The notes under the pieces were generated by a model, which saw nothing but the letters and a program-made list of their open reading frames with translations, did no database searches and had not been told where the DNA came from. DNA of 40,000 bases, taken from the NCBI GenBank assembly GCA_963666435.2, contig CAXXOG010000008.1, positions 51,286-91,285 on the forward strand. The letters run 5' to 3'. The DNA comes from Prolixibacteraceae bacterium. Lineage in GTDB: Bacteria > Bacteroidota > Bacteroidia > Bacteroidales > Prolixibacteraceae. Below are positions 15,264 to 31,842 of the stretch, one piece after another. Made by a program: the position numbers and the translations under genes. Positions within the stretch are counted from its first letter, which is position 1, and each line of letters starts with the position of its first letter.

Positions 15264-15485
15264 AACGGCTACCTCAAGCCCCCAAAACCTTACGTTCGCC
15301 TTTCTCACCCATACGGCTCCGTCACCTTTAAGGCTCACCCGGCAAAGGGTAAATAAAATTCAATAAATCGCTCTACAAATACATACATCCAATCCCGGCG
15401 GGTGCGGTGTATCGAGCTTGCCGGGGTGTAGTTCAACACACACTCATCGCTGGGTCGTGCCGACCGCTCAGAGTCCTATTTATTA
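15264..15485 (-). repeat. junction repeat B1: B-family site module (15485->15350) plus decayed group II intron 3' fragment (15349->15264)
   Basis: Alignable by eye to 16194-16416. The site module begins 14 nt after the HepT stop. The domain V/VI region is mutated here. Confidence 0.75.
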
Positions 15486-15499
15486 TAACCAGTTGTTAT

Positions 15500-15832
15500 T
15501 TAAGCAAGTAGATTATCAATCTCTAATTTCAAGGTAGGCAGATGTCTTACAATCGTTCCCCAGATAATTTCATTGTCAATTTTGTCATAACCATGGATCA
15601 CTCGATTTCGCATACTGATAATTTGTCGTTTACTCGATATCTCAATAGTTGAATCCAATTTCTCAATCCGACTCATTGCTTCTCCTATAATTTCAAACTC
15701 TCGTTCGACCGCTCTTCTCAGCATCTTATCTGCCATATAGACTTTAAAATCACGATTGTCCCCAAGATATTTTAGAATGGAATCTATAGACTCCTGGATG
15801 TCAAACAGATATTTTTTAATCTCATTATCCAT
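15500..15832 (-). CDS. hepT: HepT-like (DUF86/HEPN) toxin
   Basis: Contains the HEPN R-x4-H-x-Y motif as RNRVIHGYD. It overlaps the upstream MNT gene by 8 nt. Confidence 0.85.
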   Translation of the reverse strand: MDNEIKKYLFDIQESIDSILKYLGDNRDFKVYMADKMLRRAVEREFEIIGEAMSRIEKLDSTIEISSKRQIISMRNRVIHGYDKIDNEIIWGTIVRHLPTLKLEIDNLLA

Positions 15833-16127
15833 ATAGCAAGGTTTTTGTTTGGTTAACGGAATTAATAAAATATGGATTAGACAAAGATTTGTCCGTAACT
15901 AAGTCAACGGGTCGTTGAAACAGATCCTCAAATTTATCAGCTAAATCAAAATATGTGTCCGCATAATCTCCGTAGTCCATAGGTTTAAAGGAGATTAGTA
16001 AATCAATATCACTTTTGTCGTTAAATCTGTCGGTGCAGACCGAGCCAAAAACAAATAACGACGCTACATTATGTGTCATGCATAATGATCTGATTCTTTC
16101 AATATTATCGGTTATTAGTCTTTGCAT
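15825..16127 (-). CDS. mntA: MNT-type nucleotidyltransferase antitoxin
   Basis: Contains the minimal nucleotidyltransferase motif FVFGSVCTDRFNDKSDIDLLISF (GS...DxD). Confidence 0.85.
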   Translation of the reverse strand: MQRLITDNIERIRSLCMTHNVASLFVFGSVCTDRFNDKSDIDLLISFKPMDYGDYADTYFDLADKFEDLFQRPVDLVTDKSLSNPYFINSVNQTKTLLYG

Positions 16128-16193
16128 ATCAATGTTTTGTACAAATCTATCATTAATGTTGAAATCTTACAAGTGCCGCAATACAATTGGTGC

Positions 16194-16416
16194 ACCGGGT
16201 AGCTTACGCCCCCTAAGAACCGTACGTGCGACTTTCACCGCATACGGCTCAGGCCCTTTTAAGGCTCACCCGGCGGAGGGTAAATAAAATTCAATAAATC
16301 GCTCTACAAATACATACATCCAATCCCGGCGGGTGCGGTGTATCGAGCTTGCCGGGATGTAGTTCAACTCACACTCATCGCTGGGTCGTGCCAACCGCTC
16401 AGAGTCCTATTTATTA
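16194..16416 (-). repeat. junction repeat B2: B-family site module (16416->16281) plus 87-nt group II intron 3' fragment (16280->16194)
   Basis: The fragment carries an intact domain V (GAGCCGTATGCGGTGAAAGTCGCACGTACGGTTC) and domain VI, identical to the 3' end of the full-length introns. Confidence 0.85.
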
Positions 16417-16448
16417 GGTGTTGTAGTACTTTTATCTCGAAAACAATT

Positions 16449-17633
16449 CTATATCAATTTGTTAATAGCATCTAGAATTTCTTTATCAGTAGTCTCTTTA
16501 TCATAGCCTACTATTATCTTTTTAATCACTCGATTCTTATCTATAATATAAAATGCAGGAACTCCGTTGACCAGATAACTTTTGGAAACCTCTTGTGTTG
16601 ATAATAAAAACTTGTAATTCAATTCATTATTCTTCTGATACCTTTTCATACCTTCAATATTATCGCTCCAGGTTTCTATACTTACAAAATCAAAATCCTT
16701 ATTACTATACTTTGTTACAAGCTTCTTTAAAAATGGAATTGACATATGACAGGGACCACAACCAATTCCGCTGAATTGTACCATAAGTACCTTGCTTCTC
16801 AAATCTTTTAAATTGATTATGTTGTTATTTAAATCTTTAAGTGCCCAATCTGGTGCAATATGCCCGGTTAAATCAACCCTTTCTATTTTTTGCTTTCCCC
16901 GCACTGAAACCGGAAAGTCCTTTGGAAAATACTCTTGTACAATGAAATTCTCAATTTTCTTCTTGTTTAATTCAGCATTCTTACATGTCTCCCAGCTTGT
17001 ACTATGGGGCAGGTTTCTTCTGTACCGATAAGGCAGGTTATTTGATTTTTTTATCCATATATCATATCTGGAAAATTCATCTTTGGCGGGTAAATCCGGA
17101 TTGTCACAAACAACAGGTTTTCCTAGAAATTCGACAACCTTGTGAGGAATGAATAACCTAAATTTAACAGAGTCCCCAAAATCTTTTATTTCAGTTGAAA
17201 TACTATCTTGAGTATTTAATGCATATTTAATTATATTCTTTGTAGTAGTAAAAAATGGAGTGAATCGTCTTTGAGGAGAGCTGTCAATACTTATTCTTTT
17301 TTCGTCCCACAGAAGATATGTAAACGCTTTCCCGTCATAAAACCAACTTGTCTTATGTGTTCGGTCCTGTTGTGTCACAGTAAAACTGGAACCGGCCAAT
17401 GTGTCGACAGAATTAAAATATTCGTCATTATACCGGGAATAAGTTTTAAACTGTAGGGTATCTCCAGGTGCACTTCCGGAAACAGTAGAATAATATGTTG
17501 CAGATTTAATCTGTTCAAGGTTGTTTAAAACCTTTTGTAGATATTTAGTATTGCTATATTCTGTTCGGCATTTGTAAAATAATACTAACGCGATACCTGT
17601 TAGGAATAATAAGAGTAAATACGACCTTTTCAT
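16449..17633 (-). CDS. TlpA-like thioredoxin-fold protein with N-terminal anchor and uncharacterised N-domain
   Basis: The C-terminal domain has the CxxC motif FSGIGCGPCHMSIPFLKKL. Length is 394 aa. Confidence 0.75.
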   Translation of the reverse strand: MKRSYLLLLFLTGIALVLFYKCRTEYSNTKYLQKVLNNLEQIKSATYYSTVSGSAPGDTLQFKTYSRYNDEYFNSVDTLAGSSFTVTQQDRTHKTSWFYDGKAFTYLLWDEKRISIDSSPQRRFTPFFTTTKNIIKYALNTQDSISTEIKDFGDSVKFRLFIPHKVVEFLGKPVVCDNPDLPAKDEFSRYDIWIKKSNNLPYRYRRNLPHSTSWETCKNAELNKKKIENFIVQEYFPKDFPVSVRGKQKIERVDLTGHIAPDWALKDLNNNIINLKDLRSKVLMVQFSGIGCGPCHMSIPFLKKLVTKYSNKDFDFVSIETWSDNIEGMKRYQKNNELNYKFLLSTQEVSKSYLVNGVPAFYIIDKNRVIKKIIVGYDKETTDKEILDAINKLI

Positions 17634-17703
17634 TTTAGAGGTTTTTAGTTTGTGGAGACTATGATTAATTAGCTGTGCAAATATTTATCGGAACTATAAC
17701 ACC

Positions 17704-17970
17704 ACCGGGTAGCTTACGCCCCCTAAGAACCGTACGTGCGACTTTCACCGCACACGGCTCAGGCACTTTTAAGGCTTGCCCGGCTGTTGTTACTTCAAAA
17801 ACTCAAAATCGGTCGCTAACTGCACACTTCGACAAGCTCTGTAACTACTTCGACAAGCTCTGTAACCTTAGCCCCGAATCCGGCGGGTGCGGTGTATCGA
17901 GCTTGCCGAGGTGTAGTTCAACACACACTCATCGCTGGGTCGTGCCGACCGCTCAGAGTCCTATTTATTA
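17704..17970 (-). repeat. junction repeat B3: B-family site module (17970->17796, with 2 x 21-bp internal tandem repeat) plus 92-nt intron 3' fragment (17795->17704)
   Basis: The fragment matches the full-length intron from the last codons of the RT ORF (GTAACAACAGCCGGG) through domains V-VI. The tandem units acttcgacaagctctgtaac lie at 17826-17867. Confidence 0.85.
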
Positions 17971-17984
17971 GCGCCTGTTGTCTA

Positions 17985-18554
17985 TTATGTCTCAATGGTA
18001 AAACGTTTATATTTAGAAACTATTCTTGTCGTTGTCCAACCGCTAATTGTATATAATTTTCTGATTGAAGTTACTTTTATGATCTCATTCCCTTCCAATG
18101 AAATTGATTCAATTCCTAATAACTTGTTTGTTGAATTCTGATAAAAACCTGATAACAGATTAATTGATTTGTAATTCTCATCAAATTGACACATAGCTGC
18201 GTTGGCATAGTTGGCATAGTTAATCGTATAACTCGGATGATAGCTGGTCGAATCAAATATTTCACCTTTGGGTACACTGATATATTCAACTGGCCATTTC
18301 TCCTCAAATAAATTTTTACTGGCTTCAATAACCCGAAGTTCCAATCCCGCGCCTAATATCTCTTTATTTTCACGAAGAAGATTGGTCGAAGGAATACCAT
18401 CCATATTCAAATCTACCGGTTCGGAAGAAATTGAAGAAATCATTTCATATTTACCATGAAATTTTGCCTTTAATAGTTCAATACTCTCGCTTGAATCATT
18501 CTTATTACAACTAAATAGAATAATAGAAATAAAAATTAATAGACTTTGTTTCAT
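17985..18554 (-). CDS. hypothetical lipoprotein
   Basis: MKQSLLIFISIILFSCNKN is a lipobox-type signal. The ORF is open to 18587, but ATG 18554 fits the signal peptide. Confidence 0.65.
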   Translation of the reverse strand: MKQSLLIFISIILFSCNKNDSSESIELLKAKFHGKYEMISSISSEPVDLNMDGIPSTNLLRENKEILGAGLELRVIEASKNLFEEKWPVEYISVPKGEIFDSTSYHPSYTINYANYANAAMCQFDENYKSINLLSGFYQNSTNKLLGIESISLEGNEIIKVTSIRKLYTISGWTTTRIVSKYKRFTIET

Positions 18555-18654
18555 AAACTTCAGTTTCTGTTTTGTGATATAGGACAAAAAATAGTCTTAA
18601 ATATGTCATTTTATAGTATTTGTCTCTTTGTTATTAGCACAATAAATTACCCAC

Positions 18655-18676
18655 AACGTAGGAAGCTACACGCAGG
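18655..18676 (-). repeat. A-family site A1, arm separated from the rest by IS insertion
   Basis: aacgtaggaagctacacgcagg is identical to the equivalent arm of the intact A sites at 25644, 28568 and 31696. Confidence 0.85.
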
Positions 18677-18766
18677 CTGTATGTTTGTAAGTGCGCAATG
18701 CATAAGCCTTCAGTGTTTTTGTAAATTTAGTTTTTGAAAAAGAAACAAAACAAAAAACGAAGACTT

Positions 18767-19843
18767 ATGCTAGCTAAAGGTACGACAATTGATTTTAACG
18801 GGCAAAACGTTTATGCCGGAATTGATATTCATTTAAAGAGTTGGAAGGTAACCATCATGTTGGGAGACCGGGAACATAAAACATTTTCACAAGATCCGAA
18901 TGCAGAAACCCTGTGGAATTACCTGCGGAAGAATTTTCCCGGGGCAGTATATCATTCAGCCTACGAAGCAGGTTTTTGCGGATTCAGCGCCCATCGCGAA
19001 CTTGCGGGTTTTGGGATACACAATCTGGTGGTCAATCCTGCGGATATACCTACCACCGACAAAGAAAAGCGGCAGAAGGAAGACAAACGCGACAGTCGCA
19101 AGATCGCCAAATCGCTCCGTAACGGTGAACTGGTGGGCATCTATGTTCCGGGCAAGGGGATGGAAGAACTGCGTGGTCTGGTTCGTTACCGCAAAACGCT
19201 GGTAAAAGAAATCAGCCGCCATAAGTGCAGGATCAAGTCGTTCATTTATTTTAACGGCATACAAATTCCAATGGAACTGGGCGGCACCTCAACGCATTGG
19301 TCCGGGAGGTTCACCCGGTGGTTAAGCGCAGTTGAATTATCAACGGTACATGGCAAAATGGTACTTGACGACACAGTCGATACGGCAGAACTGCTGCGAA
19401 AAAAACTGTTAAAGGTCAACCGGCATTTGCGTCAGGTTGTCCAGAATGGGGAATATTCACAGCAACTAAGGTTATTGCAGAGCATCCCGGGAATCGGCCT
19501 GATATCGGCCATTACACTTTTGACCGAAATGGAGGATATCCTTCGGTTCAGGAACCTTGACCAACTTTGTTCATTCGTGGGACTGGTACCATCAACCAAC
19601 TCCTCGGGCGAAAAGGAGAATGTTGGTCGTATCACCAGGCGCAACAACCGTTTTCTACGCAGCATTCTTGTAGAGGCAGCCTGGATGGCATCGAGAAAAG
19701 ACCCGTCGCTGTTATATAGCTATGCCTTACTTTGCAAGCGGATGGAACCAACGGAAGCCATCATCCGGATAGCAAAAAAATTACTAAACAGGATAAGATA
19801 TGTAATGAAAAATGAAACAGAATATGTACATTCAGTGCTATAA
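18767..19843 (+). CDS. IS110-family transposase (DEDD N-domain plus Transposase_20-type C-domain)
   Basis: N-terminal VYAGIDIHLKSW and C-terminal LQSIPGIGLISAITLLTEM...FVGLVPSTNSSGEK..GRITRRNNRFLRSILVEAAW are typical of the family. The ORF is open from TTG 18734, but the ATG at 18767 is the likelier start. Confidence 0.9.
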   Translation: MLAKGTTIDFNGQNVYAGIDIHLKSWKVTIMLGDREHKTFSQDPNAETLWNYLRKNFPGAVYHSAYEAGFCGFSAHRELAGFGIHNLVVNPADIPTTDKEKRQKEDKRDSRKIAKSLRNGELVGIYVPGKGMEELRGLVRYRKTLVKEISRHKCRIKSFIYFNGIQIPMELGGTSTHWSGRFTRWLSAVELSTVHGKMVLDDTVDTAELLRKKLLKVNRHLRQVVQNGEYSQQLRLLQSIPGIGLISAITLLTEMEDILRFRNLDQLCSFVGLVPSTNSSGEKENVGRITRRNNRFLRSILVEAAWMASRKDPSLLYSYALLCKRMEPTEAIIRIAKKLLNRIRYVMKNETEYVHSVL

Positions 19844-19899
19844 CATCAAAACTGGTTGTAAAAACTACTCCATGATAAAGAGACTGTTTTCCGCCCCTT

Positions 19900-20140
19900 G
19901 CGGCCCCTGATAGGGTGTCCGTTACACGCAGGCCACAGCTCTTATCTATAATAAATTGAACACAGGAATGCGGCTGGTTGCACCATGTCCGTTGATAGAA
20001 GGGTGTTTTTATAGACCGGTATTTGATACAAAAGAGGGGAACCCGAAGGTGAAGTTTTACACCGAAGGTTTAGAAATTATGCTGGGCTTTTGCCCAGCAT
20101 AATTAAACCAAGAGGGGAAACCCTCAGGCTCTGTATTGCC
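19900..20140 (+). ncRNA. candidate bridge/seek RNA of the IS (3' non-coding region)
   Basis: Four short segments match the insertion chemistry. TACACGCAGG (19923-19932) equals the target left flank plus core. TGCGG (19969-19973) equals the target right flank. ATAGAAGG (19995-20002) equals the IS right end plus core. CTGTAT (20131-20136) equals the IS left end. Two of these follow a repeated GTCCGTT scaffold. The RNA boundaries are not defined. Confidence 0.5.
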
Positions 20141-20233
20141 CAAAGGTTTAGGGATTTAAAAAGTTAACTTACTGAATAGTAGAAAAATAGTTTAAAAATA
20201 AAGAATGAAAAATTTGGATTACAACATAGAAGG

Positions 20234-20356
20234 GGCGGACTGCGGGCGATTTGGCTAACGCCGATTTTCAATTCCTGTCAAGCCGAAATGCAGCCCGGGC
20301 GGAAAGATACACACCGAAAACCAATGCTGCCGACCTTGACGGGTAGCTGATGTTAT
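20234..20356 (-). repeat. A-family site A1, remainder
   Basis: ggcggactgcgggcgatttggctaacgccgattttcaattcctgtcaagccgaaa...gacgggtagctgatgttat is homologous to the intact A sites. Confidence 0.85.
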
Positions 20357-20379
20357 ATGCCGCTCTTATTCTGTCCCAT

Positions 20380-21117
20380 TTAATATTCAAACCTAATGGA
20401 ATAATATTGCAATAAATCTTTATCATTCTGTTGGTCATATTCGTGAGTCGCAATGTATATAGTGTTTTTGTCTGCCCAAAACATTGCTGTTTTTTCATCC
20501 TCATTAATGTCAATGTCCGTAAAATCAAATGCAAAAAGCGTCCAAACGCCATTTTTTGAAGACTTGCATATCTCAATTTGAAGGAAATTGTCGCAATCTT
20601 GTCTCTCCAACCCAACCCAAAGTCCATCTTTGGACATCACACCATATTCGCCTCTAAATCTTCGATAACCTGATGCTACTTTATTTGTGCTGGCAAACAC
20701 AAAACTTGCTTTTGCATTATGATAGTCTAGTATGTAAAACAAATATAAGTTAAGAGTAGGATAATATGCTTTAAAAGAAGTAAGGCATCTCGGTGAATTG
20801 CATAATTCACTTTTTGCAAGTTCTTTTTCATCTTCATTGTAAGTTTTTTCAATAGACTCAAATGGTTTTTCAAGTTTTGTAGTGTCACCAATTTCGGTTA
20901 CAAAAGGTGCATTATAGTTTCTTTTTAATGCGTTTCTAAATTCTAATTTGGTAATAGGCGAAAAGGTAAAAAATCGTCTATTTCCTTCTGACTTTGTGCT
21001 GTCAGCCTTGATTGTCTGTGCATTTGTCGAGTTGTTACAACTTATCAAAAGCAAAGTCGCTATGAGTGTCCTAGCAATTTGAAGTCTTAATGTCGATATG
21101 GTAATTGTCTTGCTCAT
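20380..21117 (-). CDS. hypothetical secreted/lipoprotein
   Basis: 245-aa ORF with the signal LLLISCNNS. The cassette is bracketed by a 13/14 inverted repeat. Confidence 0.65.
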   Translation of the reverse strand: MSKTITISTLRLQIARTLIATLLLISCNNSTNAQTIKADSTKSEGNRRFFTFSPITKLEFRNALKRNYNAPFVTEIGDTTKLEKPFESIEKTYNEDEKELAKSELCNSPRCLTSFKAYYPTLNLYLFYILDYHNAKASFVFASTNKVASGYRRFRGEYGVMSKDGLWVGLERQDCDNFLQIEICKSSKNGVWTLFAFDFTDIDINEDEKTAMFWADKNTIYIATHEYDQQNDKDLLQYYSIRFEY

Positions 21118-21138
21118 AATGTCGTCTTAGAGTGGCAT

Positions 21139-21162
21139 ATAACGTAGGAAGCTACACGCAGG
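21139..21162 (-). repeat. A-family site A2, arm separated by IS insertion
   Basis: ataacgtaggaagctacacgcagg, the same arm as at 18655-18676. Confidence 0.85.
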
Positions 21163-21252
21163 CTGTATGTTTGTAAGTGCGCAATGCATAAGCCTTCAGT
21201 GTTTTTGTAAATTTAGTTTTTGAAAAAGAAACAAAACAAAAAACGAAGACTT

Positions 21253-22329
21253 ATGCTAGCTAAAGGTACGACAATTGATTTTAACGGGCAAAACGTTTAT
21301 GCCGGAATTGATATTCATTTAAAGAGTTGGAAGGTAACCATCATGTTGGGAGACCGGGAACATAAAACATTTTCACAAGATCCGAATGCAGAAACCCTGT
21401 GGAATTACCTGCGGAAGAATTTTCCCGGGGCAGTATATCATTCAGCCTACGAAGCAGGTTTTTGCGGATTCAGCGCCCATCGCGAACTTGCGGGTTTTGG
21501 GATACACAATCTGGTGGTCAATCCTGCGGATATACCTACCACCGACAAAGAAAAGCGGCAGAAGGAAGACAAACGCGACAGTCGCAAGATCGCCAAATCG
21601 CTCCGTAACGGTGAACTGGTGGGCATCTATGTTCCGGGCAAGGGGATGGAAGAACTGCGTGGTCTGGTTCGTTACCGCAAAACGCTGGTAAAAGAAATCA
21701 GCCGCCATAAGTGCAGGATCAAGTCGTTCATTTATTTTAACGGCATACAAATTCCAATGGAACTGGGCGGCACCTCAACGCATTGGTCCGGGAGGTTCAC
21801 CCGGTGGTTAAGCGCAGTTGAATTATCAACGGTACATGGCAAAATGGTACTTGACGACACAGTCGATACGGCAGAACTGCTGCGAAAAAAACTGTTAAAG
21901 GTCAACCGGCATTTGCGTCAGGTTGTCCAGAATGGGGAATATTCACAGCAACTAAGGTTATTGCAGAGCATCCCGGGAATCGGCCTGATATCGGCCATTA
22001 CACTTTTGACCGAAATGGAGGATATCCTTCGGTTCAGGAACCTTGACCAACTTTGTTCATTCGTGGGACTGGTACCATCAACCAACTCCTCGGGCGAAAA
22101 GGAGAATGTTGGTCGTATCACCAGGCGCAACAACCGTTTTCTACGCAGCATTCTTGTAGAGGCAGCCTGGATGGCATCGAGAAAAGACCCGTCGCTGTTA
22201 TATAGCTATGCCTTACTTTGCAAGCGGATGGAACCAACGGAAGCCATCATCCGGATAGCAAAAAAATTACTAAACAGGATAAGATATGTAATGAAAAATG
22301 AAACAGAATATGTACATTCAGTGCTATAA
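21253..22329 (+). CDS. IS110-family transposase (copy 2, identical protein)
   Basis: The ORF-track protein is identical to that of copy 1. Confidence 0.9.
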   Translation: MLAKGTTIDFNGQNVYAGIDIHLKSWKVTIMLGDREHKTFSQDPNAETLWNYLRKNFPGAVYHSAYEAGFCGFSAHRELAGFGIHNLVVNPADIPTTDKEKRQKEDKRDSRKIAKSLRNGELVGIYVPGKGMEELRGLVRYRKTLVKEISRHKCRIKSFIYFNGIQIPMELGGTSTHWSGRFTRWLSAVELSTVHGKMVLDDTVDTAELLRKKLLKVNRHLRQVVQNGEYSQQLRLLQSIPGIGLISAITLLTEMEDILRFRNLDQLCSFVGLVPSTNSSGEKENVGRITRRNNRFLRSILVEAAWMASRKDPSLLYSYALLCKRMEPTEAIIRIAKKLLNRIRYVMKNETEYVHSVL

Positions 22330-22385
22330 CATCAAAACTGGTTGTAAAAACTACTCCATGATAAAGAGACTGTTTTCCGCCCCTT

Positions 22386-22626
22386 GCGGCCCCTGATAGG
22401 GTGTCCGTTACACGCAGGCCACAGCTCTTATCTATAATAAATTGAACACAGGAATGCGGCTGGTTGCACCATGTCCGTTGATAGAAGGGTGTTTTTATAG
22501 ACCGGTATTTGATACAAAAGAGGGGAACCCGAAGGTGAAGTTTTACACCGAAGGTTTAGAAATTATGCTGGGCAAAAGCCCAGCATAATTAAACCAAGAG
22601 GGGAAACCCTCAGGCTCTGTATTGCC
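22386..22626 (+). ncRNA. candidate bridge/seek RNA, copy 2
   Basis: Same sequence as 19900-20140, except that the hairpin loop at 22574-22577 is AAAA instead of TTTT. Confidence 0.45.
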
Positions 22627-22719
22627 CAAAGGTTTAGGGATTTAAAAAGTTAACTTACTGAATAGTAGAAAAATAGTTTAAAAATAAAGAATGAAAAATT
22701 TGGATTACAACATAGAAGG

Positions 22720-22821
22720 TGCGGATCGCGGGCGATTTCCTGTCAAGCCGAAAAGCAGCCCGAGCGGAAAGATGCACACCGAAAACCACTGCTGCCGCGC
22801 TTGACGGGTAGCTGATGTTAT
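22720..22821 (-). repeat. A-family site A2, remainder (carries a 21-bp internal deletion)
   Basis: tgcggatcgcgggcgattt|cctgtcaagccgaaaagc...gacgggtagctgatgttat. The segment ggctaacgccgattttcaatt is missing relative to the other A sites. Confidence 0.8.
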
Positions 22822-23393
22822 GGGCTGCCTTTCGTTTCATTAATACTGTGATTTCTAAAATCTTTCGCGATCACATAGTTGTCACCGACCAAAATAAGTT
22901 TATAATTGTTTGGTTTTAATACACTCTCAAACGACTTTGTCAAAACCCCGTGTTTGTCGCAAACTGCAACAATCTTTTGATTAATTGTAAGTGGAGCCTC
23001 TGATAATTTTCCACTTCCATCCTTCACATTTCCTAAGAATTTGTCAAAAGTGAAATTGATATTCTTGTCGGTTAAATAATTAGTCCAACGTCTCCAACCT
23101 TCGGTAATTTCTTCAATTGCATCCTTTAAGTCGTCAATAAATCTGTCAAAATGGTCTGGTTTCGAGTTTATGTAAGTTGTCACAATAATTTCGTTATAGC
23201 CAATTAATAAAGGATGTTTTTCAAAATAATGGAATTGTCCAATGACACCTTTCTTTAAACTAAATTCCTTTTTGCCAATGAAGTCGAACCGAAATAATTG
23301 CTCGTCAATCTTCAGCGTCAAAAATGTCGCTTGGTAGTTGTCCACTTGAACTGTTTTATTTTGAATATCGTCCAATATCATTTGTGCTGTCAA
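22818..23393 (-). CDS. hypothetical protein
   Basis: 191-aa ORF. Its TAA stop lies inside the ATAAC core of site A2. Confidence 0.6.
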   Translation of the reverse strand: MTAQMILDDIQNKTVQVDNYQATFLTLKIDEQLFRFDFIGKKEFSLKKGVIGQFHYFEKHPLLIGYNEIIVTTYINSKPDHFDRFIDDLKDAIEEITEGWRRWTNYLTDKNINFTFDKFLGNVKDGSGKLSEAPLTINQKIVAVCDKHGVLTKSFESVLKPNNYKLILVGDNYVIAKDFRNHSINETKGSP

Positions 23394-23407
23394 TTAAGGT
23401 TGCCGCA

Positions 23408-25643
23408 ACCGGGTAGCTTACGCCCCCTAAGAACCGTACGTGCGACTTTCACCGCATACGGCTCAGGCACTTTTAAGGCTCACCCGGCGGAGGGCAACCC
23501 GGCTGTTGTTACTTTTTTATTGGACATAAACATAGTAATTTGTTTGCATTCTTTTGCTAAATTAGCTCTCCATTTTGTTCTGTTACTGAAGTATTCATCA
23601 AATTCGGGCAGAAAAGGATTGGCTTCGGCCTTCAGTTTTACATGATACCGAATGGGAACATATCCAATACGGTACAGTCGATGATTCTCTGTTCCGTTTT
23701 TGGTGATCCGCTGATCAGTAAAATGGTTGTCGTGAAAGTAACGATGGTATATCCACCAGCGATTTTTGTTTCCATGCTGGTATTTAGCCCATCGCCTGAG
23801 CTGCCACCAGATGAATGTTGCCAAACGGATGAAAATACGTTTTGAGCAGATGCCTTTGTGGTAGTTCGACCATCCCCTGATTACAGGGTTCAGTATCCGT
23901 ATCAGAGCATGTGCGGGTATTCCACGGTTTTCGTTGATGATCGTTTTCACCTTGTCTCTAAACGATTGGACTGATTCTTTCGATGGACGAATAACCAGTT
24001 TGCCTTTAAATTTACGGACATTCTGTGAAAGGAAGTTAAACCCATCGCTGATATGCGTGATTCTGGATTTTTCGGCAGAGAGTTCTAACCCTCTTTCCAT
24101 CAGGAAGTCGTTTACCAAAGGGATAATCTCTTCGGTAATGACTTCTTTGCTGATGGCCGTGATCACAAAATCGTCGGCATAACGGATGAAGTTCACTTTC
24201 TTGTTTTTCCATCGGGGAAACTTTTTATTGATGGCCGTTTCCAGTCCGTCCAAAACCATGTTCATGATTACCGGTGATATGGTTCCTCCCTGTGGCGTAC
24301 CTTTATCTGTGCGGAACAAACGTTTTTTCTCGATGTAACCGGCTTTTAACCATTGATTAAGAATGGTCTTGTTGACGGGAATATTTTCCAATATCCAGTC
24401 GTGCCGGATGTTATCGAAACAAGATTTGATGTCCGCCTCGAATATCCATTGGGACGAGATTTTTCGGCAGAGCAATTGGAAACAGGCGGCAATGGCATCG
24501 TTGCACGAACGACGAGGTCTGAACCCGTAAGAGTTCTTGTCGGCCAACGATTCGGCCATTGGTTCGAGGGCTATCTTATGCAATGTTTGCATAGCCCTGT
24601 CGCTCATGACCGGAATACTTAACGGACGCTTTTTCCCGTTTTTCTTTGGGATGTAAAGTCGGCGCAATGGTTTCGATCTGTACCCTCTGGATTGGAGTTT
24701 TCGGGCTGCTTCGAGTTTTTCTTCCCCGTTTGTCCAAACGGTGTTGTCAACCCCGGGAGTTGCGCCTCCTTTGTTGGTTGAGACCCTTAGTACAGCCAGT
24801 AATTTAGCGTAGAATGATTTGGTAACAAGGTGCATCAGGGCTTTTGCTTTCGCCCAACGACCTTGTTTTACAGCCTTGGCAATGCGGCGTTGCAGCCTGG
24901 TCACATGTTGGATAACCTTCCGCCATAAAATGGTTTGCCAGTTATTCAATTGGTGTGGGAGCGCACACGATAAACTTTCATCCTCGTTCATTTGCTTTCT
25001 TCCATTTGCAGGTTCTGTAAAACTTTATGCCATAAAGCACCAGATGAAGGTAGGCAGGCTTTCGCCCGTGGTGATGTTGTAAACAAACTCAACCACTATC
25101 CAACCCGTTACAGGAAGGCATTCGCTTTGTTCATCGTCTCTGTCCGGCGTTTCCCGATGCCTCGCGGTTACGGTTTTATCCCGAAAATAATGGGAGAGAG
25201 CGCCGGGCTTACACGTTCCGAATAAATAATCAATTGTGTGGGTTTAGGCCCATCCTGTCTGCCGGCTGATCTACATCCTTGTAGGCACTGCGTTAAACGT
25301 ACCTAACCTGTCAGCTCACCATTTTGGTACAAAGCGTATCATTCTCTTTTTCGCTCCTACTCGCCTGTCGGCAGTAACGGATTGTTCACTATATGTTAGC
25401 CATGCCCACTGATCCAAGCCCTTAATTGACTTTGAGACTTCAAAGACTGTCTGCCTCACGGTTTCCAGCCCCGCCATTGGCTGCACGAGCCCGGCAATTG
25501 GTACTGTTTCCCGGGGGCTTCACCCGGTAATGGCTGCACCATACACCAGGTGCCCCGGTAGGATACTGCTGAAGGAACAGCAGGTTTTGTCAATCAGTTG
25601 TAACTGACTGCAAAACAATTGCTTAATACGACTTCGTGTCGCA
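23408..25643 (-). mobile_element. group II intron, full length, copy 1 (2236 nt; boundaries +/- 2 nt)
   Basis: Domain V lies at 23464->23431 (GAGCCGTATGCGGTGAAAGTCGCACGTACGGTTC). Domain VI (GGGGGC-GUAA-GCUACCC) has a bulged A at 23414, 7 nt from the 3' end. An RT/maturase ORF sits in domain IV, preceded by a ~650-nt 5' ribozyme region. The intron lies exactly between site A3 and the next cassette. Confidence 0.9.
23480..24991 (-). CDS. group II intron reverse transcriptase/maturase (no HNH endonuclease domain)
   Basis: RT motifs RLYIPKKNGKKRPLSIPVMSDRAMQ and FIRYADDFVI (YADD), plus the maturase/X domain RGWSNYH. Length is 503 aa. Confidence 0.95.
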   Translation of the reverse strand: MNEDESLSCALPHQLNNWQTILWRKVIQHVTRLQRRIAKAVKQGRWAKAKALMHLVTKSFYAKLLAVLRVSTNKGGATPGVDNTVWTNGEEKLEAARKLQSRGYRSKPLRRLYIPKKNGKKRPLSIPVMSDRAMQTLHKIALEPMAESLADKNSYGFRPRRSCNDAIAACFQLLCRKISSQWIFEADIKSCFDNIRHDWILENIPVNKTILNQWLKAGYIEKKRLFRTDKGTPQGGTISPVIMNMVLDGLETAINKKFPRWKNKKVNFIRYADDFVITAISKEVITEEIIPLVNDFLMERGLELSAEKSRITHISDGFNFLSQNVRKFKGKLVIRPSKESVQSFRDKVKTIINENRGIPAHALIRILNPVIRGWSNYHKGICSKRIFIRLATFIWWQLRRWAKYQHGNKNRWWIYHRYFHDNHFTDQRITKNGTENHRLYRIGYVPIRYHVKLKAEANPFLPEFDEYFSNRTKWRANLAKECKQITMFMSNKKVTTAGLPSAG

Positions 25644-25790
25644 ATAACGTAGGAAGCTACACGCAGGTGCGGATTGCGGGCGATTTGGCTAACGCCGATT
25701 TTCAATTCCTGTCAAGCCGAAAAGCCGACCGAGCGGAAAGATGCACACCGAAAACCACCGAACCCGCACTTGACGGGTAGCTGATGTTAT
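25644..25790 (-). repeat. A-family attC-like site A3 (intact)
   Basis: Imperfect inverted arms: TAACGTAGGAAGCTACACGCAGGTGCGG ... CCGCACTTGACGGGTAGCTGATGTTA. It starts ~20 nt after the stop of the 25811-26359 ORF. Confidence 0.85.
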
Positions 25791-25810
25791 GGTGCGTTTT
25801 CCTTTGTCTG

Positions 25811-26359
25811 TCAAGCATCTCCGTTAACCATTAGTTCATAATATTCTCCTTTTGTCAGGTTGATTTTAAGGTTAAAATAGCAATTCCCGCCATCCATAAC
25901 TTCTATTATCTCTTTTTTCCAATCAGTGTCCCAAGTGTTACAAAAGCAATTTACCCAAATTTCCTTTTCTCCTTGTGAATTAATGGCCGCAATATATTGT
26001 CGTTTGTAACGGGACAAATCAATGATAAAATTTTTCTTGTCCAGTTTATAATTTGGGTGCTTGTCATTTATTTCCTTGAATTGTCTCTCTTGGTCTGGGT
26101 TATAATTGTCAATACATTCTTTTAATAATTTCTCAACTTGCGTCAAGTCAGCATTTGTCAGCTCCACCGGTTTGCTGTCTATAAACAACCATTTTTGCGC
26201 CGTGTCAAACGGTAAAACGGCTATGGTAGAAGTGTCAATTTGTAAAGATGTCGAACTTAAAACTCCGTCTTTACTTGCAACTTGATTCTGTCCACAGCAT
26301 GAAAGGTTGACAGTCAAAACCAAAACTAATATTGTCATTTGTCTAATCATTCGTGTCAC
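25811..26359 (-). CDS. hypothetical secreted protein
   Basis: 182-aa ORF with an N-terminal signal-like segment (MTILVLVLTVNLSCCGQ). Confidence 0.65.
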   Translation of the reverse strand: MTRMIRQMTILVLVLTVNLSCCGQNQVASKDGVLSSTSLQIDTSTIAVLPFDTAQKWLFIDSKPVELTNADLTQVEKLLKECIDNYNPDQERQFKEINDKHPNYKLDKKNFIIDLSRYKRQYIAAINSQGEKEIWVNCFCNTWDTDWKKEIIEVMDGGNCYFNLKINLTKGEYYELMVNGDA

Positions 26360-26374
26360 TCTTTTAAATGCGCC

Positions 26375-26640
26375 AACCGGGTAGCTTATGCCCCCTAAAG
26401 AACCTTACATTCAACTTTCACCTCACACGGCTCAGGCACCTTTAAGGCTCACCCGGTTGTTATTACTTCAAAAACCATAAAACGGTCGCTAAGTGCATAC
26501 TTCGACAAGCTCTGTAACTACTTCGACAAGCTCTGTAAACACTTCGACAAGCTCTGTAATCTTAGCCCCGATCCCGGCGGGTGCGGTTCAACCGGGAATA
26601 ATCGCTGGGTCGTGCCGACCGCTCAGAGTCCTATTTATTA
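26375..26640 (-). repeat. junction repeat B4: B-family site module (26640->26469, 3 x 21-bp internal tandem repeat) plus decayed 94-nt intron 3' fragment (26468->26375)
   Basis: Homologous to B3. The tandem units lie at 26499-26561. Domain V carries several substitutions. Confidence 0.8.
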
Positions 26641-27356: not shown

Positions 27357-27372
27357 TTAAAATTGGTGCTAA

Positions 27373-27497
27373 CGTTGAGGGTATGCAGCGTGCGGGAGTT
27401 CGTGGCCACTTCCTTATCCACCGTTACTGCCCTTGCCAGCGAGCCCTGAGCTTGCAAATGGCTCTGAAACCCGCATGTTGTATACCCTGTGTTGAAC
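27373..27497 (-). repeat. C-family attC-like site
   Basis: Imperfect inverted arms: (A)ACGTTGAGGGTATGCAGCGTGCGGG ... CCCGCATGTTGTATACCCTGTGTTGAAC. It shares the AACGT..GCAG.GTGCGG layout with family A. Confidence 0.75.
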
Positions 27498-27559
27498 TAA
27501 ATCCGCCTTCGCGGATAGCTTTTTAAAACTACCCGATTCTTCCTATTCTAAGGAATTAA

Positions 27560-27832
27560 TCACAACAAAAATTTCTGAATATGAGAAAGAAATCGGGTTT
27601 TAATATTGTTGAGCAGGCCATTGTGCTTGTTCCTGAGTTTGAAAAAGTTGTCCGCAAGTTGGCGTACATGGGAAAGGTATGCCCAATTGCCAGCGAAAAT
27701 GACTAAAAACAGGTGGCCAAACACGATTTTACCAGTGCTGTGAAACCATAAAAGCACTAAAACCTGCAATACGTCAAAAAACGTTATCTCATTAATTTCC
27801 TTCAAAAACTCAAAATCGGTCGCAAAGTGCAT
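27560..27832 (-). CDS. doubtful small ORF in a ~310-bp cassette (may be ORF-less)
   Basis: 90-aa ORF whose first 8 codons lie inside repeat B5. No motif recognised. Confidence 0.2.
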   Translation of the reverse strand: MHFATDFEFLKEINEITFFDVLQVLVLLWFHSTGKIVFGHLFLVIFAGNWAYLSHVRQLADNFFKLRNKHNGLLNNIKTRFLSHIQKFLL

Positions 27833-27909
27833 AGCTCCGATCCCGGCGGGTGTAGTTCAACACAGACTCATCGCTAGGCGTTGCACGCCACTCAGAGTCC
27901 TATTTATTA
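27809..27909 (-). repeat. junction repeat B5: B-family site module without any intron fragment (uninvaded form)
   Basis: Homologous to the site-module part of B3 and B4. It lacks domains V-VI and carries a compensated hairpin variant at 27877-27889. Confidence 0.8.
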
Positions 27910-29459: not shown

Positions 29460-31695
29460 ACCGGGTAGCTTACGCCCCCTAAGAACCGTACGTGCGACTT
29501 TCACCGCATACGGCTCAGGCACTTTTAAGGCTCACCCGGCGGAGGGCAACCCGGCTGTTGTTACTTTTTTATTGGACATAAACATAGTAATTTGTTTGCA
29601 TTCTTTTGCTAAATTAGCTCTCCATTTTGTTCTGTTACTGAAGTATTCATCAAATTCGGGCAGAAAAGGATTGGCTTCGGCCTTCAGTTTTACATGATAC
29701 CGAATGGGAACATATCCAATACGGTACAGTCGATGATTCTCTGTTCCGTTTTTGGTGATCCGCTGATCAGTAAAATGGTTGTCGTGAAAGTAACGATGGT
29801 ATATCCACCAGCGATTTTTGTTTCCATGCTGGTATTTAGCCCATCGCCTGAGCTGCCACCAGATGAATGTTGCCAAACGGATGAAAATACGTTTTGAGCA
29901 GATGCCTTTGTGGTAGTTCGACCATCCCCTGATTACAGGGTTCAGTATCCGTATCAGAGCATGTGCGGGTATTCCACGGTTTTCGTTGATGATCGTTTTC
30001 ACCTTGTCTCTAAACGATTGGACTGATTCTTTCGATGGACGAATAACCAGTTTGCCTTTAAATTTACGGACATTCTGTGAAAGGAAGTTAAACCCATCGC
30101 TGATATGCGTGATTCTGGATTTTTCGGCAGAGAGTTCTAACCCTCTTTCCATCAGGAAGTCGTTTACCAAAGGGATAATCTCTTCGGTAATGACTTCTTT
30201 GCTGATGGCCGTGATCACAAAATCGTCGGCATAACGGATGAAGTTCACTTTCTTGTTTTTCCATCGGGGAAACTTTTTATTGATGGCCGTTTCCAGTCCG
30301 TCCAAAACCATGTTCATGATTACCGGTGATATGGTTCCTCCCTGTGGCGTACCTTTATCTGTGCGGAACAAACGTTTTTTCTCGATGTAACCGGCTTTTA
30401 ACCATTGATTAAGAATGGTCTTGTTGACGGGAATATTTTCCAATATCCAGTCGTGCCGGATGTTATCGAAACAAGATTTGATGTCCGCCTCGAATATCCA
30501 TTGGGACGAGATTTTTCGGCAGAGCAATTGGAAACAGGCGGCAATGGCATCGTTGCACGAACGACGAGGTCTGAACCCGTAAGAGTTCTTGTCGGCCAAC
30601 GATTCGGCCATTGGTTCGAGGGCTATCTTATGCAATGTTTGCATAGCCCTGTCGCTCATGACCGGAATACTTAACGGACGCTTTTTCCCGTTTTTCTTTG
30701 GGATGTAAAGTCGGCGCAATGGTTTCGATCTGTACCCTCTGGATTGGAGTTTTCGGGCTGCTTCGAGTTTTTCTTCCCCGTTTGTCCAAACGGTGTTGTC
30801 AACCCCGGGAGTTGCGCCTCCTTTGTTGGTTGAGACCCTTAGTACAGCCAGTAATTTAGCGTAGAATGATTTGGTAACAAGGTGCATCAGGGCTTTTGCT
30901 TTCGCCCAACGACCTTGTTTTACAGCCTTGGCAATGCGGCGTTGCAGCCTGGTCACATGTTGGATAACCTTCCGCCATAAAATGGTTTGCCAGTTATTCA
31001 ATTGGTGTGGGAGCGCACACGATAAACTTTCATCCTCGTTCATTTGCTTTCTTCCATTTGCAGGTTCTGTAAAACTTTATGCCATAAAGCACCAGATGAA
31101 GGTAGGCAGGCTTTCGCCCGTGGTGATGTTGTAAACAAACTCAACCACTATCCAACCCGTTACAGGAAGGCATTCGCTTTGTTCATCGTCTCTGTCCGGC
31201 GTTTCCCGATGCCTCGCGGTTACGGTTTTATCCCGAAAATAATGGGAGAGAGCGCCGGGCTTACACGTTCCGAATAAATAATCAATTGTGTGGGTTTAGG
31301 CCCATCCTGTCTGCCGGCTGATCTACATCCTTGTAGGCACTGCGTTAAACGTACCTAACCTGTCAGCTCACCATTTTGGTACAAAGCGTATCATTCTCTT
31401 TTTCGCTCCTACTCGCCTGTCGGCAGTAACGGATTGTTCACTATATGTTAGCCATGCCCACTGATCCAAGCCCTTAATTGACTTTGAGACTTCAAAGACT
31501 GTCTGCCTCACGGTTTCCAGCCCCGCCATTGGCTGCACGAGCCCGGCAATTGGTACTGTTTCCCGGGGGCTTCACCCGGTAATGGCTGCACCATACACCA
31601 GGTGCCCCGGTAGGATACTGCTGAAGGAACAGCAGGTTTTGTCAATCAGTTGTAACTGACTGCAAAACAATTGCTTAATACGACTTCGTGTCGCA
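29460..31695 (-). mobile_element. group II intron, full length, copy 2 (identical to copy 1)
   Basis: Offset of +6052 from copy 1. Identity extends through the adjoining A site (29460-31838 equals 23408-25786). Confidence 0.9.
29532..31043 (-). CDS. group II intron reverse transcriptase/maturase (copy 2)
   Basis: Its 503-aa translation is identical to that of 23480-24991. Confidence 0.95.
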   Translation of the reverse strand: MNEDESLSCALPHQLNNWQTILWRKVIQHVTRLQRRIAKAVKQGRWAKAKALMHLVTKSFYAKLLAVLRVSTNKGGATPGVDNTVWTNGEEKLEAARKLQSRGYRSKPLRRLYIPKKNGKKRPLSIPVMSDRAMQTLHKIALEPMAESLADKNSYGFRPRRSCNDAIAACFQLLCRKISSQWIFEADIKSCFDNIRHDWILENIPVNKTILNQWLKAGYIEKKRLFRTDKGTPQGGTISPVIMNMVLDGLETAINKKFPRWKNKKVNFIRYADDFVITAISKEVITEEIIPLVNDFLMERGLELSAEKSRITHISDGFNFLSQNVRKFKGKLVIRPSKESVQSFRDKVKTIINENRGIPAHALIRILNPVIRGWSNYHKGICSKRIFIRLATFIWWQLRRWAKYQHGNKNRWWIYHRYFHDNHFTDQRITKNGTENHRLYRIGYVPIRYHVKLKAEANPFLPEFDEYFSNRTKWRANLAKECKQITMFMSNKKVTTAGLPSAG

Positions 31696-31842
31696 ATAAC
31701 GTAGGAAGCTACACGCAGGTGCGGATTGCGGGCGATTTGGCTAACGCCGATTTTCAATTCCTGTCAAGCCGAAAAGCCGACCGAGCGGAAAGATGCACAC
31801 CGAAAACCACCGAACCCGCACTTGACGGGTAGCTGAAGTTAT
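31696..31842 (-). repeat. A-family attC-like site A5 (intact)
   Basis: Identical to A3 up to the outer core. It starts ~15 nt after the stop of the 31858-32139 ORF. Confidence 0.85.

Follow-up and report, generated by a model that had tools for sequence, protein, structure and literature searches.

Intron stubs fused to IS91-family tails in the cassette arrays of a Prolixibacteraceae bacterium probably derive from one or two ancient joints

We analysed a stretch of 40,000 nucleotides (nt) from a Prolixibacteraceae bacterium (assembly GCA_963666435.2, contig CAXXOG010000008.1, forward strand; G000:C8:51286-91285 in our labelling, where G000 is the source genome), which is referred to below as the window. 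Between ~14.4 and 32.6 kb the window holds an array of small minus-strand open reading frames (ORFs) with repeated noncoding modules between them, and within this array lie two full-length copies of a group II intron and four stubs that represent only its 3' end. In the original prediction the stubs were taken for products of abortive retrohoming into a family of recombination sites, termed B. The B module is no recombination site but represents the tail of an IS91-family element at its right (oriIS-side) end, and each stub is joined to such a tail at one of two joints that are common to many copies and to a second species. We consider it rather probable that one or two ancient IS91-tail/intron joints were formed and then spread by homologous recombination or gene conversion.

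The four stubs of the window (Table 1) are homologous to the last 81-107 nt of the resident intron and stop at the same terminal base (...CTACCCGGT). Their common end is ...GCTACCCGGT, decayed to GGTAGCCGTT in the 15264 copy, with unrelated sequence beyond. Compared with the intron 3' end by BLAST, the 16194 copy is 97.8% identical over 90 nt, 17704 is 96.3% identical over 81 nt, 26376 is 88.9% identical over 81 nt and 15264 reaches 79-80%. With the Rfam model RF00029 (gathering threshold 40 bits), minus-strand matches were obtained at 16194-16252 (59.8 bits, equal to both full introns at 23408 and 29460) and 17704-17762 (54.5 bits), while the 26376 copy scored 25.1 bits (E 0.34) and the 15264 copy fell below detection, so that these two are recognisable only by homology. 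Domain V was assessed by its length of 34 nt, AGC triad, 2-nt bulge and GNRA loop. It is fully paired, with an AGC triad and an AC bulge, at 16194 and at 17704 (where A8 is changed to G, giving a G-U pair), carries three broken pairs at 26376 (11/14 pairs) and contains an indel at 15264; RF00029 and the domain V features together thus assign the 16194 and 17704 copies, and not the other two, to domains V-VI. The original prediction was right in regarding all four as 5'-truncated 3' ends of one intron family with a common 3' boundary, and in separating two pairing-competent copies from two mutated ones. Its coordinates are accurate to within one base, the intron end it placed at 26375 lying at 26376.

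Table 1 Coordinates of the stubs, IS91-family sequences, introns and intron target sites in the window
Feature	Position	Strand	Remarks
Intron stub, joint class a, decayed	15264..15349	-	Domains V-VI, indel in domain V; 78-80% identical to intron
Intron stub, joint class a, re-converted by live intron	16194..16280	-	Domain V 14/14 pairs
Intron stub, joint class b	17704..17795	-	107-nt form minus 15-nt internal deletion; domain V intact
Intron stub, joint class b, 15-nt-deleted form	26376..26468	-	Shared defective domain V haplotype and one more broken pair
IS91-family right-end tail ('B': leader and terminal two-palindrome core)	15350..15484	-	Terminus 15484
IS91-family right-end tail	16281..16415	-	Terminus 16415
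IS91-family right-end tail, long variant, two 21-nt repeats (GTTACAGAGCTTGTCGAAGTA)	17796..17969	-	Terminus 17969
IS91-family right-end tail, three 21-nt repeats	26469..26639	-	Terminus 26639
Internally deleted IS91-family element ('B5' of the original prediction)	27498..27908	+	Two-ended, 411 nt
Full-length group II intron, copy 1	23408..25644	-	2237 nt, 5'-UUGCG...GGU-3', 503-aa reverse transcriptase/maturase; donor in gene conversion and partner in recombination
Full-length group II intron, copy 2	29460..31696	-	100% identical to copy 1
A-type attC-like site, 5' exon of intron copy 1	25645..25789	-	Ends in target TCCTACGTTA
A-type attC-like site, 5' exon of intron copy 2	31697..31841	-	

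Searches of the whole genome with BLAST and RF00029 yielded 13 stubs of 81-107 nt and five full introns that are at least 99.95% identical; neither stubs of other lengths nor domain-VI-only remnants were found genome-wide. The pairing of fragments with B and of full introns with A sites, which the original prediction had drawn from the window, holds throughout the genome: all 13 stubs have a same-strand B core 100-210 nt upstream of them and all five introns adjoin A sites, a split with an exact probability of 1/8568 by our own arithmetic. A further 13 B cores carry no stub.

An alignment of the units places 11 of the 13 stubs in one joint class (b), in which ...GCGACCG(A/T)TTT..GTTTTTGAAG is joined to TAA(C/T)AACAGCCGGG. 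Four of these retain the next 15 nt (the 107-nt form) and seven, including 17704 and 26376 in the window, have lost them between two GCCGGG repeats. Both of the 5' starts recognised earlier, CCCT(C/T)(C/T)GCCGGG and GTAA(C/T)AACA(G/A)CCGGG, are therefore real, but the one at 17704 and 26376, which had been placed inside the last codons of the reverse transcriptase (RT), is the breakpoint of the 107-nt form followed by a later 15-nt deletion and not a breakpoint of its own. The remaining two stubs (15264 and 16194) form class a, with ...GAATTTTATTTA joined to CCCT... The sequence AAG.AA occurs as a microhomology at the joint. Relatives were compared as a sample only; among them were G012 (OY761460.1, a metagenome-assembled genome of the Prolixibacteraceae, Bacteroidota, from the same genus as the source genome), G018 and G029. 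G012 has both joints, in two class-b and five class-a copies, as well as the intact IS tail, and the 15264 stub resembles its class-a copies; an exact-pattern scan of genome contigs for the class-b joint returned OY761460.1 only. At least three further joints are present in G012, G018 and G029, and all known joints of the genus fall within the last ~130 nt of the intron. Every composite copy is located in a cassette array.

Of the 13 stubs, seven carry a defective domain V (broken pairs, AGG triad, AT bulge), while in the other six domains V and VI and the 3' end are perfect. One haplotype, G6.A29 with G10.A23 and the AT bulge, is shared by four copies in the genome and in part by a fifth (C5:289979), and the same defective haplotype is found in G012 copies of both joint classes. 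Identical joints combined with identical inactivating changes rule out independent abortive events of an active intron as the source of these copies. The differing states of decay on which the original prediction had based events of different ages are genuine, but independent events are not supported, since the joints and the derived domain V substitutions are shared.

The B core is the terminus of a two-gene element of which the genome contains two full copies, encoding a 301-aa tyrosine recombinase (Phage_integrase) and a 394-aa transposase (Pfam matches Y2_Tnp, 1.4e-51, and Zn_Tnp_IS91, 2.7e-28). The sense strand of the element is the plus strand of the window, and its 3' noncoding tail ends in the B core (...GAGTCCTATTTATT) in both full copies and in the miniature copy of the window, which is the position of an IS91 right end. 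The left end, GTTGAAC followed by TAAATCCGCCTTCGCGGAT, consists of one palindrome beside GTTC on the other strand and resembles terIS of IS801 and IS1294 (PMC13181058). GAAC follows the right end only in a tandem copy, with cassette-specific bases elsewhere, and target duplication was not seen. This tandem copy, a 403-nt duplication of the tail at G000:C8:986684-987088 that includes the last 48 transposase codons, looks like a product of re-initiation or failed termination of rolling-circle transposition. At least 26 IS tails are present in the genome, and the composites keep 110-250 nt of tail. Two other interpretations of the module were dropped. A second attC family (from spacer asymmetry and ends resembling R'' and R' in comparison with the A sites) was abandoned because the B core and leader are the IS91 3' tail, and the conserved ATG(C/T)ACTT..CGACCG, considered as the start of 66- and 27-aa ORFs, was abandoned because the stretch is antisense to the IS tail.

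The element shares with IS91, IS801, IS1294 and ISCR (PMC13181058), and especially with the two-gene subgroup that has a tyrosine recombinase, a right end downstream of the Y2/Zn-ribbon transposase, two subterminal palindromes at this end, a single left-end palindrome next to GTTC and an apparent lack of target duplication; tail-only relics and a miniature derivative are likewise present. It differs from the family in having an internal fusion of the tail with an intron end, in targeting the attC core in cassette arrays of Bacteroidota and in a right-end tetranucleotide that is not consistently GTTC/CTTG.

The miniature (27498-27908) had been described as the B site that shows the uninvaded state, a description that does not survive comparison with the full copy at C8:984.2-986.7 kb, to which its left end is 93% identical over 174 nt and its right end 99% over 250 nt. 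It is an internally deleted IS91-type element: the left end, whose palindrome adjoins GTTGAAC, extends through ~28 initial codons of the tyrosine recombinase gene and is followed by the terminal ~250 nt of the right end. Next to it is the GTTCAAC core of an attC-like site of a third type (27366-27497), which has only the CGTTA half of the intron target. On one side the full element and the miniature both adjoin a cassette end, and on the other the GTTCAAC core of an intact attC, which indicates that the element homes to the side of attC (R'', GTTC) opposite to that used by the intron, antisense to the cassettes. The order IS then attC with an intact intron target is present at C8:984136 and C2:151662. 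The 27498-27908 copy has both ends and the usual target of a miniature non-autonomous IS91 derivative; the composites have no left end of the element and are not followed by the GTTCAAC attC core.

Each full intron of the window directly follows a 145-nt A-type attC-like hairpin, attC identity and strand having been assigned here from sequence features alone. The intron protein contains the RVT_N, RVT_1 and GIIM domains without an endonuclease domain, and its closest solved relative is the group IIB maturase of T.el4h (6me0_C, E 3.6e-147). The intron has ~725 nt of non-ORF RNA with an Rfam match to group-II-D1D4-7. A candidate exon-binding site 2 (EBS2; GTAGGA, nt 285) and EBS1 (TAACG, nt 350) can pair with the TCCTAC/CGTTA that ends the A site, matching TCCTACGTTA of the A sites and not the IS tail. 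The intron appears to be of IIB type, oriented in the sense direction and attC-homing, and to insert after TCCTACGTTA, on the 3' (R') side of attC-like sites.

Group IIC-attC introns (S.ma.I2 and relatives; PMC3001079) likewise home to attC near the conserved GTT/AAC core, but they are of class IIC and insert in the bottom strand, opposite to cassette transcription (PMC7923331). The present intron has neither a class IIC ribozyme and protein nor the absence of EBS2 and the ~400 nt of noncoding RNA typical of that group, and introns and stubs share the minus strand with all cassette ORFs. It is not assigned to group IIC-attC because its protein is nearest to the IIB T.el4h, an EBS2 candidate is present and its orientation is sense to the cassettes. 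A closer counterpart is UHB.I2 (group IIB, CL1; PMC7923331), which has the same unusual 5'-UUGCG..GU-3' boundaries, cassette orientation and a position just after attC; the present intron resembles it in these features and differs in its host (Prolixibacteraceae, Bacteroidota). Additionally, a piece of 116 nt from the 5' part of the intron, 84% identical, directly follows an A site at G000:C2:169177-169292. As a 3'-truncated piece it could not have been made by abortive reverse transcription, which shows that deletion processes also act on these introns.

In stubs and full introns alike, a cassette-specific inverted-repeat arm starts right after CCCGGT, and its first 8-12 nt form the reverse complement of the sequence that immediately precedes the next site core; the insertion register is the same in both. 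A shuffle test of local alignments gave p <= 0.05 for nine of ten testable stubs and four of five full introns; three stubs were left out because the next site core was not found. An ungapped 14-mer search for the cassette inverted repeats was too crude and was replaced by this local alignment to the pre-core bases. Furthermore, one cassette leader is found at two places with one base differing: in the window it follows CGTTG of an A site, and in contig C2 it follows CCCGGT of a stub. The shared register identifies the 3' junctions of the stubs as true intron/exon junctions at many cassettes.

The upstream side is different. The 5' exon of the intron (TCCTACGTTA) and attC are absent upstream of the stubs, where the IS91 3' tail lies instead, and beyond the stub there is no return to the B/IS sequence, which means that nothing was inserted into B. 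The missing intron target, the missing continuation of B and the loss of attC leave the proposal of abortive retrohoming into B sites unsupported. Of the marks of abortive retrohoming, the composites have 3' junction identity but neither the target 5' exon upstream nor independence of the copies. A homologous junction illustrates the point: the MNT-HepT cassette (15500-16127) is 94% identical in G029, where it is preceded by an ordinary ~90-nt hairpin site and no composite, so that the state in the window is a replacement and not an insertion into B. When this cassette (window 15495-16135) is compared with its counterpart (L030, G029:C58:23048-23688), the inter-cassette modules differ on both sides, from which it follows that inheritance of the modules in these arrays is not tied to the cassette on either side.

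Units 15264 and 16194 are 133/136 identical in the IS arm and only 68/88 in the intron arm. The intron arm of 16194 is 86/87 identical to the resident intron, including CCCTCC, which is specific to the resident; old stubs and introns from other species read CCCTTC at this place. The 16194 stub is clearly a gene-conversion tract from the joint onward, re-converted by the live intron. Mosaic domain V haplotypes (for example C5:289979), in which positions 8 and 21 occur in all four combinations, point the same way, to recombination.

That each stub arose by its own incomplete target-primed reverse transcription at a B site, at different times, we now regard as highly improbable, and for individual copies the idea is largely refuted. 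It accounts well for 5' truncation in every stub, with the intron 3' end exact and the junction to the 3' exon authentic, it suits an intron protein without an endonuclease domain, and the relatives do show several breakpoints within the last ~130 nt. There is also precedent in cassette arrays: the 5'-truncated fragments UHB.F1 and H.ha.F1/F2 (the latter in a cluster of attC sites lacking an integrase, or CALIN, of Halorhodospira halochloris) have been ascribed to incomplete reverse transcription (Sonbol & Siam, 2021; PMC7923331). Like the present stubs, these are reduced to the 3' part, domains V-VI and in some cases the end of the RT gene, within an integrase-less attC-type cluster. Unlike them, the present stubs form a 13-copy family with one or two joints, fused to IS91, present in two species and in part kept 'fresh' by gene conversion. 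What counts against independent abortive events is the identity of the 5' joints (in 11/13 and 2/13, and again in the second species), the inactivating domain V substitutions common to copies, the upstream IS91 tail without intron-binding sites 2 and 1 (IBS2/IBS1) where attC would be expected, and the lack of intermediate stub lengths.

The original prediction had also named an observation that would speak against it, a composite of site and fragment recurring as a unit at many noncassette loci. The composite does recur as a unit, which agrees with that observation in spirit, although all of its copies are in arrays. Recurrence as a unit could instead reflect a non-autonomous rolling-circle element in which the oriIS tail starts replication, the domain VI hairpin serves as a surrogate terminator and the transposase is supplied in trans by the two resident copies. 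We think this improbable, though less so than independent abortive retrohoming. The domain VI hairpin (3 nt, a 6-7-bp stem and a 4-nt loop) is like the true left end TAA-ATCCGC-CTTC-GCGGAT, and the units have sharp ends, a constant interior and variable flanks. At 113 nt or more, the tail kept is longer than the 82 bp that suffice for oriIS function in IS91, and the family frequently undergoes one-ended transposition (PMC13181058); two intact transposase genes and a two-ended miniature derivative in the window would also fit. However, the parent IS and the miniature adjoin the intact GTTCAAC core of attC and no composite has attC after the intron end, the next cassette begins exactly in the register of the intron 3' exon, attC at the homologous G029 junction speaks for replacement rather than insertion, and the intron's own end explains the left boundary equally well.

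According to the explanation that we favour, descent from one or two ancient joints, the ancestral junction (one, possibly two) would have had, in cassette-strand order, the IS tail, the rest of the IS, attC, the intron and the next cassette. A single deletion or template switch at AAG.AA would have removed the rest of the IS, attC and ~2.13 kb of the intron, leaving a scar of IS tail, domains V-VI and cassette. Homologous recombination or gene conversion would then have carried this joint to different cassettes that had borne an intron, which is feasible because both arms are multicopy (the IS tails on one side, the five identical introns and the stubs on the other). The 15-nt deletion, point decay and re-conversion by live introns would be later steps. 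The common joints, the attC loss, the authentic 3' junctions and the conversion at 16194 are direct observations, as is the match of B to the IS91 terminus.

Several points weigh against this explanation. The full precursor, with IS, attC and intron together, has not been caught at any locus; duplicated flanking cassettes that would mark unequal crossing-over were not found in the genome, except for the one shared 5' leader; and the recombination arms are short (81-107 nt). The copy at C13:294851 has G for T inside the microhomology, which could mean separate formation, and the two joint classes are only ~10-20 nt apart and may be independent events. The clustering of joints in the last ~130 nt is not accounted for by random deletion and hints at a mechanistic bias, for instance an early abort of the RT, which may have given rise to each joint class; the mechanism of the original prediction is to this extent retained. 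An extension of this idea is that the composite forms anew each time, the RT aborting after domains V-VI and the cDNA end (the complement of AAGTAA) re-priming on AAGGAA of the upstream IS tail. The AAG.AA microhomology is as such a process would leave it, C13:294851 combines the IS-type G in the microhomology with a different (short-leader) tail background, the known joints of the genus all lie in the same terminal region and the order IS then attC is common. Yet a 5-of-6-nt microhomology is unlikely to have been chosen 11 times, an active intron cannot yield the defective domain V haplotypes each time, and inheritance or transfer explains the same joint in two species more simply; recurrent formation is thus unlikely in our view, somewhat more so than the rolling-circle alternative.

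Finally, the stubs might be kept by selection as RNA modules, either as structured 5' leaders of the downstream cassette or, in combination with domains I-IV of a full intron, as alternative or trans 3' splice acceptors. The stubs are co-oriented with the ORFs and the full introns, each directly before a cassette, 6/13 copies are perfect in domain V, domain VI and the 3' end, and pair 8-27 shows pair-preserving changes from A-U to G-U to G-C. In C.te.I1 of Clostridium tetani three extra D5/6 motifs act as alternative 3' splice sites (PMC3919590), and the arrangement of a full intron followed by same-strand D5/6 motifs, each before an ORF, is similar. The C.te.I1 motifs, however, are near-identical, within 5 kb and used in vivo, whereas here over half are defective, the spacing is irregular and the motifs are tied to a transposon tail. 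Selection of this kind is also made very doubtful by the seven catalytically defective copies, by intact stubs that are not regularly downstream of a full intron (with two antisense IS110 copies in between in the window) and by recent gene conversion, which explains the intact state. Least probable of all, on our analysis, is that the intact stubs serve the full introns as alternative or trans 3' splice acceptors. If they did, a transcript from one junction could be spliced onto a distant cassette, an RNA-level reshuffling of the array analogous to C.te.I1, and gene conversion from live introns would keep the acceptors functional. A scan of the composites for sigma-70 promoters and intrinsic terminators found nothing.

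The two IS110-family copies are identical, encode a 369-aa DEDD transposase, lie on the plus strand (window 18655-20210 and 21141-22675) and are inserted at the same position of two A sites; they break any read-through transcription from intron copy 1 to stubs 17704 and 16194. A canonical integron integrase was not found in the genome (TIGR02249 best score 92 bits against a cut-off of 265). The integrase search of the genome returned no more than recombinases of Xer-like or IS-associated kind, together with tyrosine recombinase remnants of 67 aa from the C-terminus, the latter beside cassette arrays (G000:C11:201534-201728, C12:129655-129849 and C5:270355-270522), with no intact integron-type integrase anywhere in G000. 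A homologue of the redoxin cassette was absent among 60 relatives.

Two stubs from two other species, L022 (G012:C1:~5701250) and L030 (G029:C58:~22860), have a common ~20-nt insertion in domain V (..GCACAGCTTGTCCCGTTTTT..), the core of which resembles the 21-nt repeat of the long IS tail (ACAGAGCTTGTCGAAG). A second, unrelated family of group II domains V-VI is represented by G000:C1:98818-98893 (minus strand; L027) and G000:C12:117006-117083 (plus strand; L028), with GAGCCGTATGAATCGAGAGGTTCACGTACGGTTC, a long domain VI and RF00029 scores of 50 and 48 bits; neither an RT gene nor an Rfam domain I-IV match was found nearby. The C1 copy is in a cassette array behind a decayed B-like core. A ~240-nt repeat (CCTGCTCCTTGGGATATGCCCAAAGGTTGC...CACAAATCCGGATGAGCTTGG) follows B-type cores at G000:C1:98900-99140 and in at least nine other places (C1, C2, C12 and C13), and only one of its copies runs on into this second family.

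No earlier description of an intron/IS91 composite was found in the literature that we looked up. The supposed B family of sites in the array is recast as transposon tails. A group IIB intron and an IS91-type element, which are unrelated, would home to opposite sides of the same attC-like hairpin in Bacteroidota arrays, and a chimeric scar of both replaces attC. For annotation, counting domain V-VI matches as independent insertions overestimates intron activity. The conversion between live intron and relic provides a small, clean example of how dead copies stay "young". In arrays without an integrase, the scars, as multicopy patches of homology with a possibly competent oriIS, may re-sort cassettes or lock them in place.

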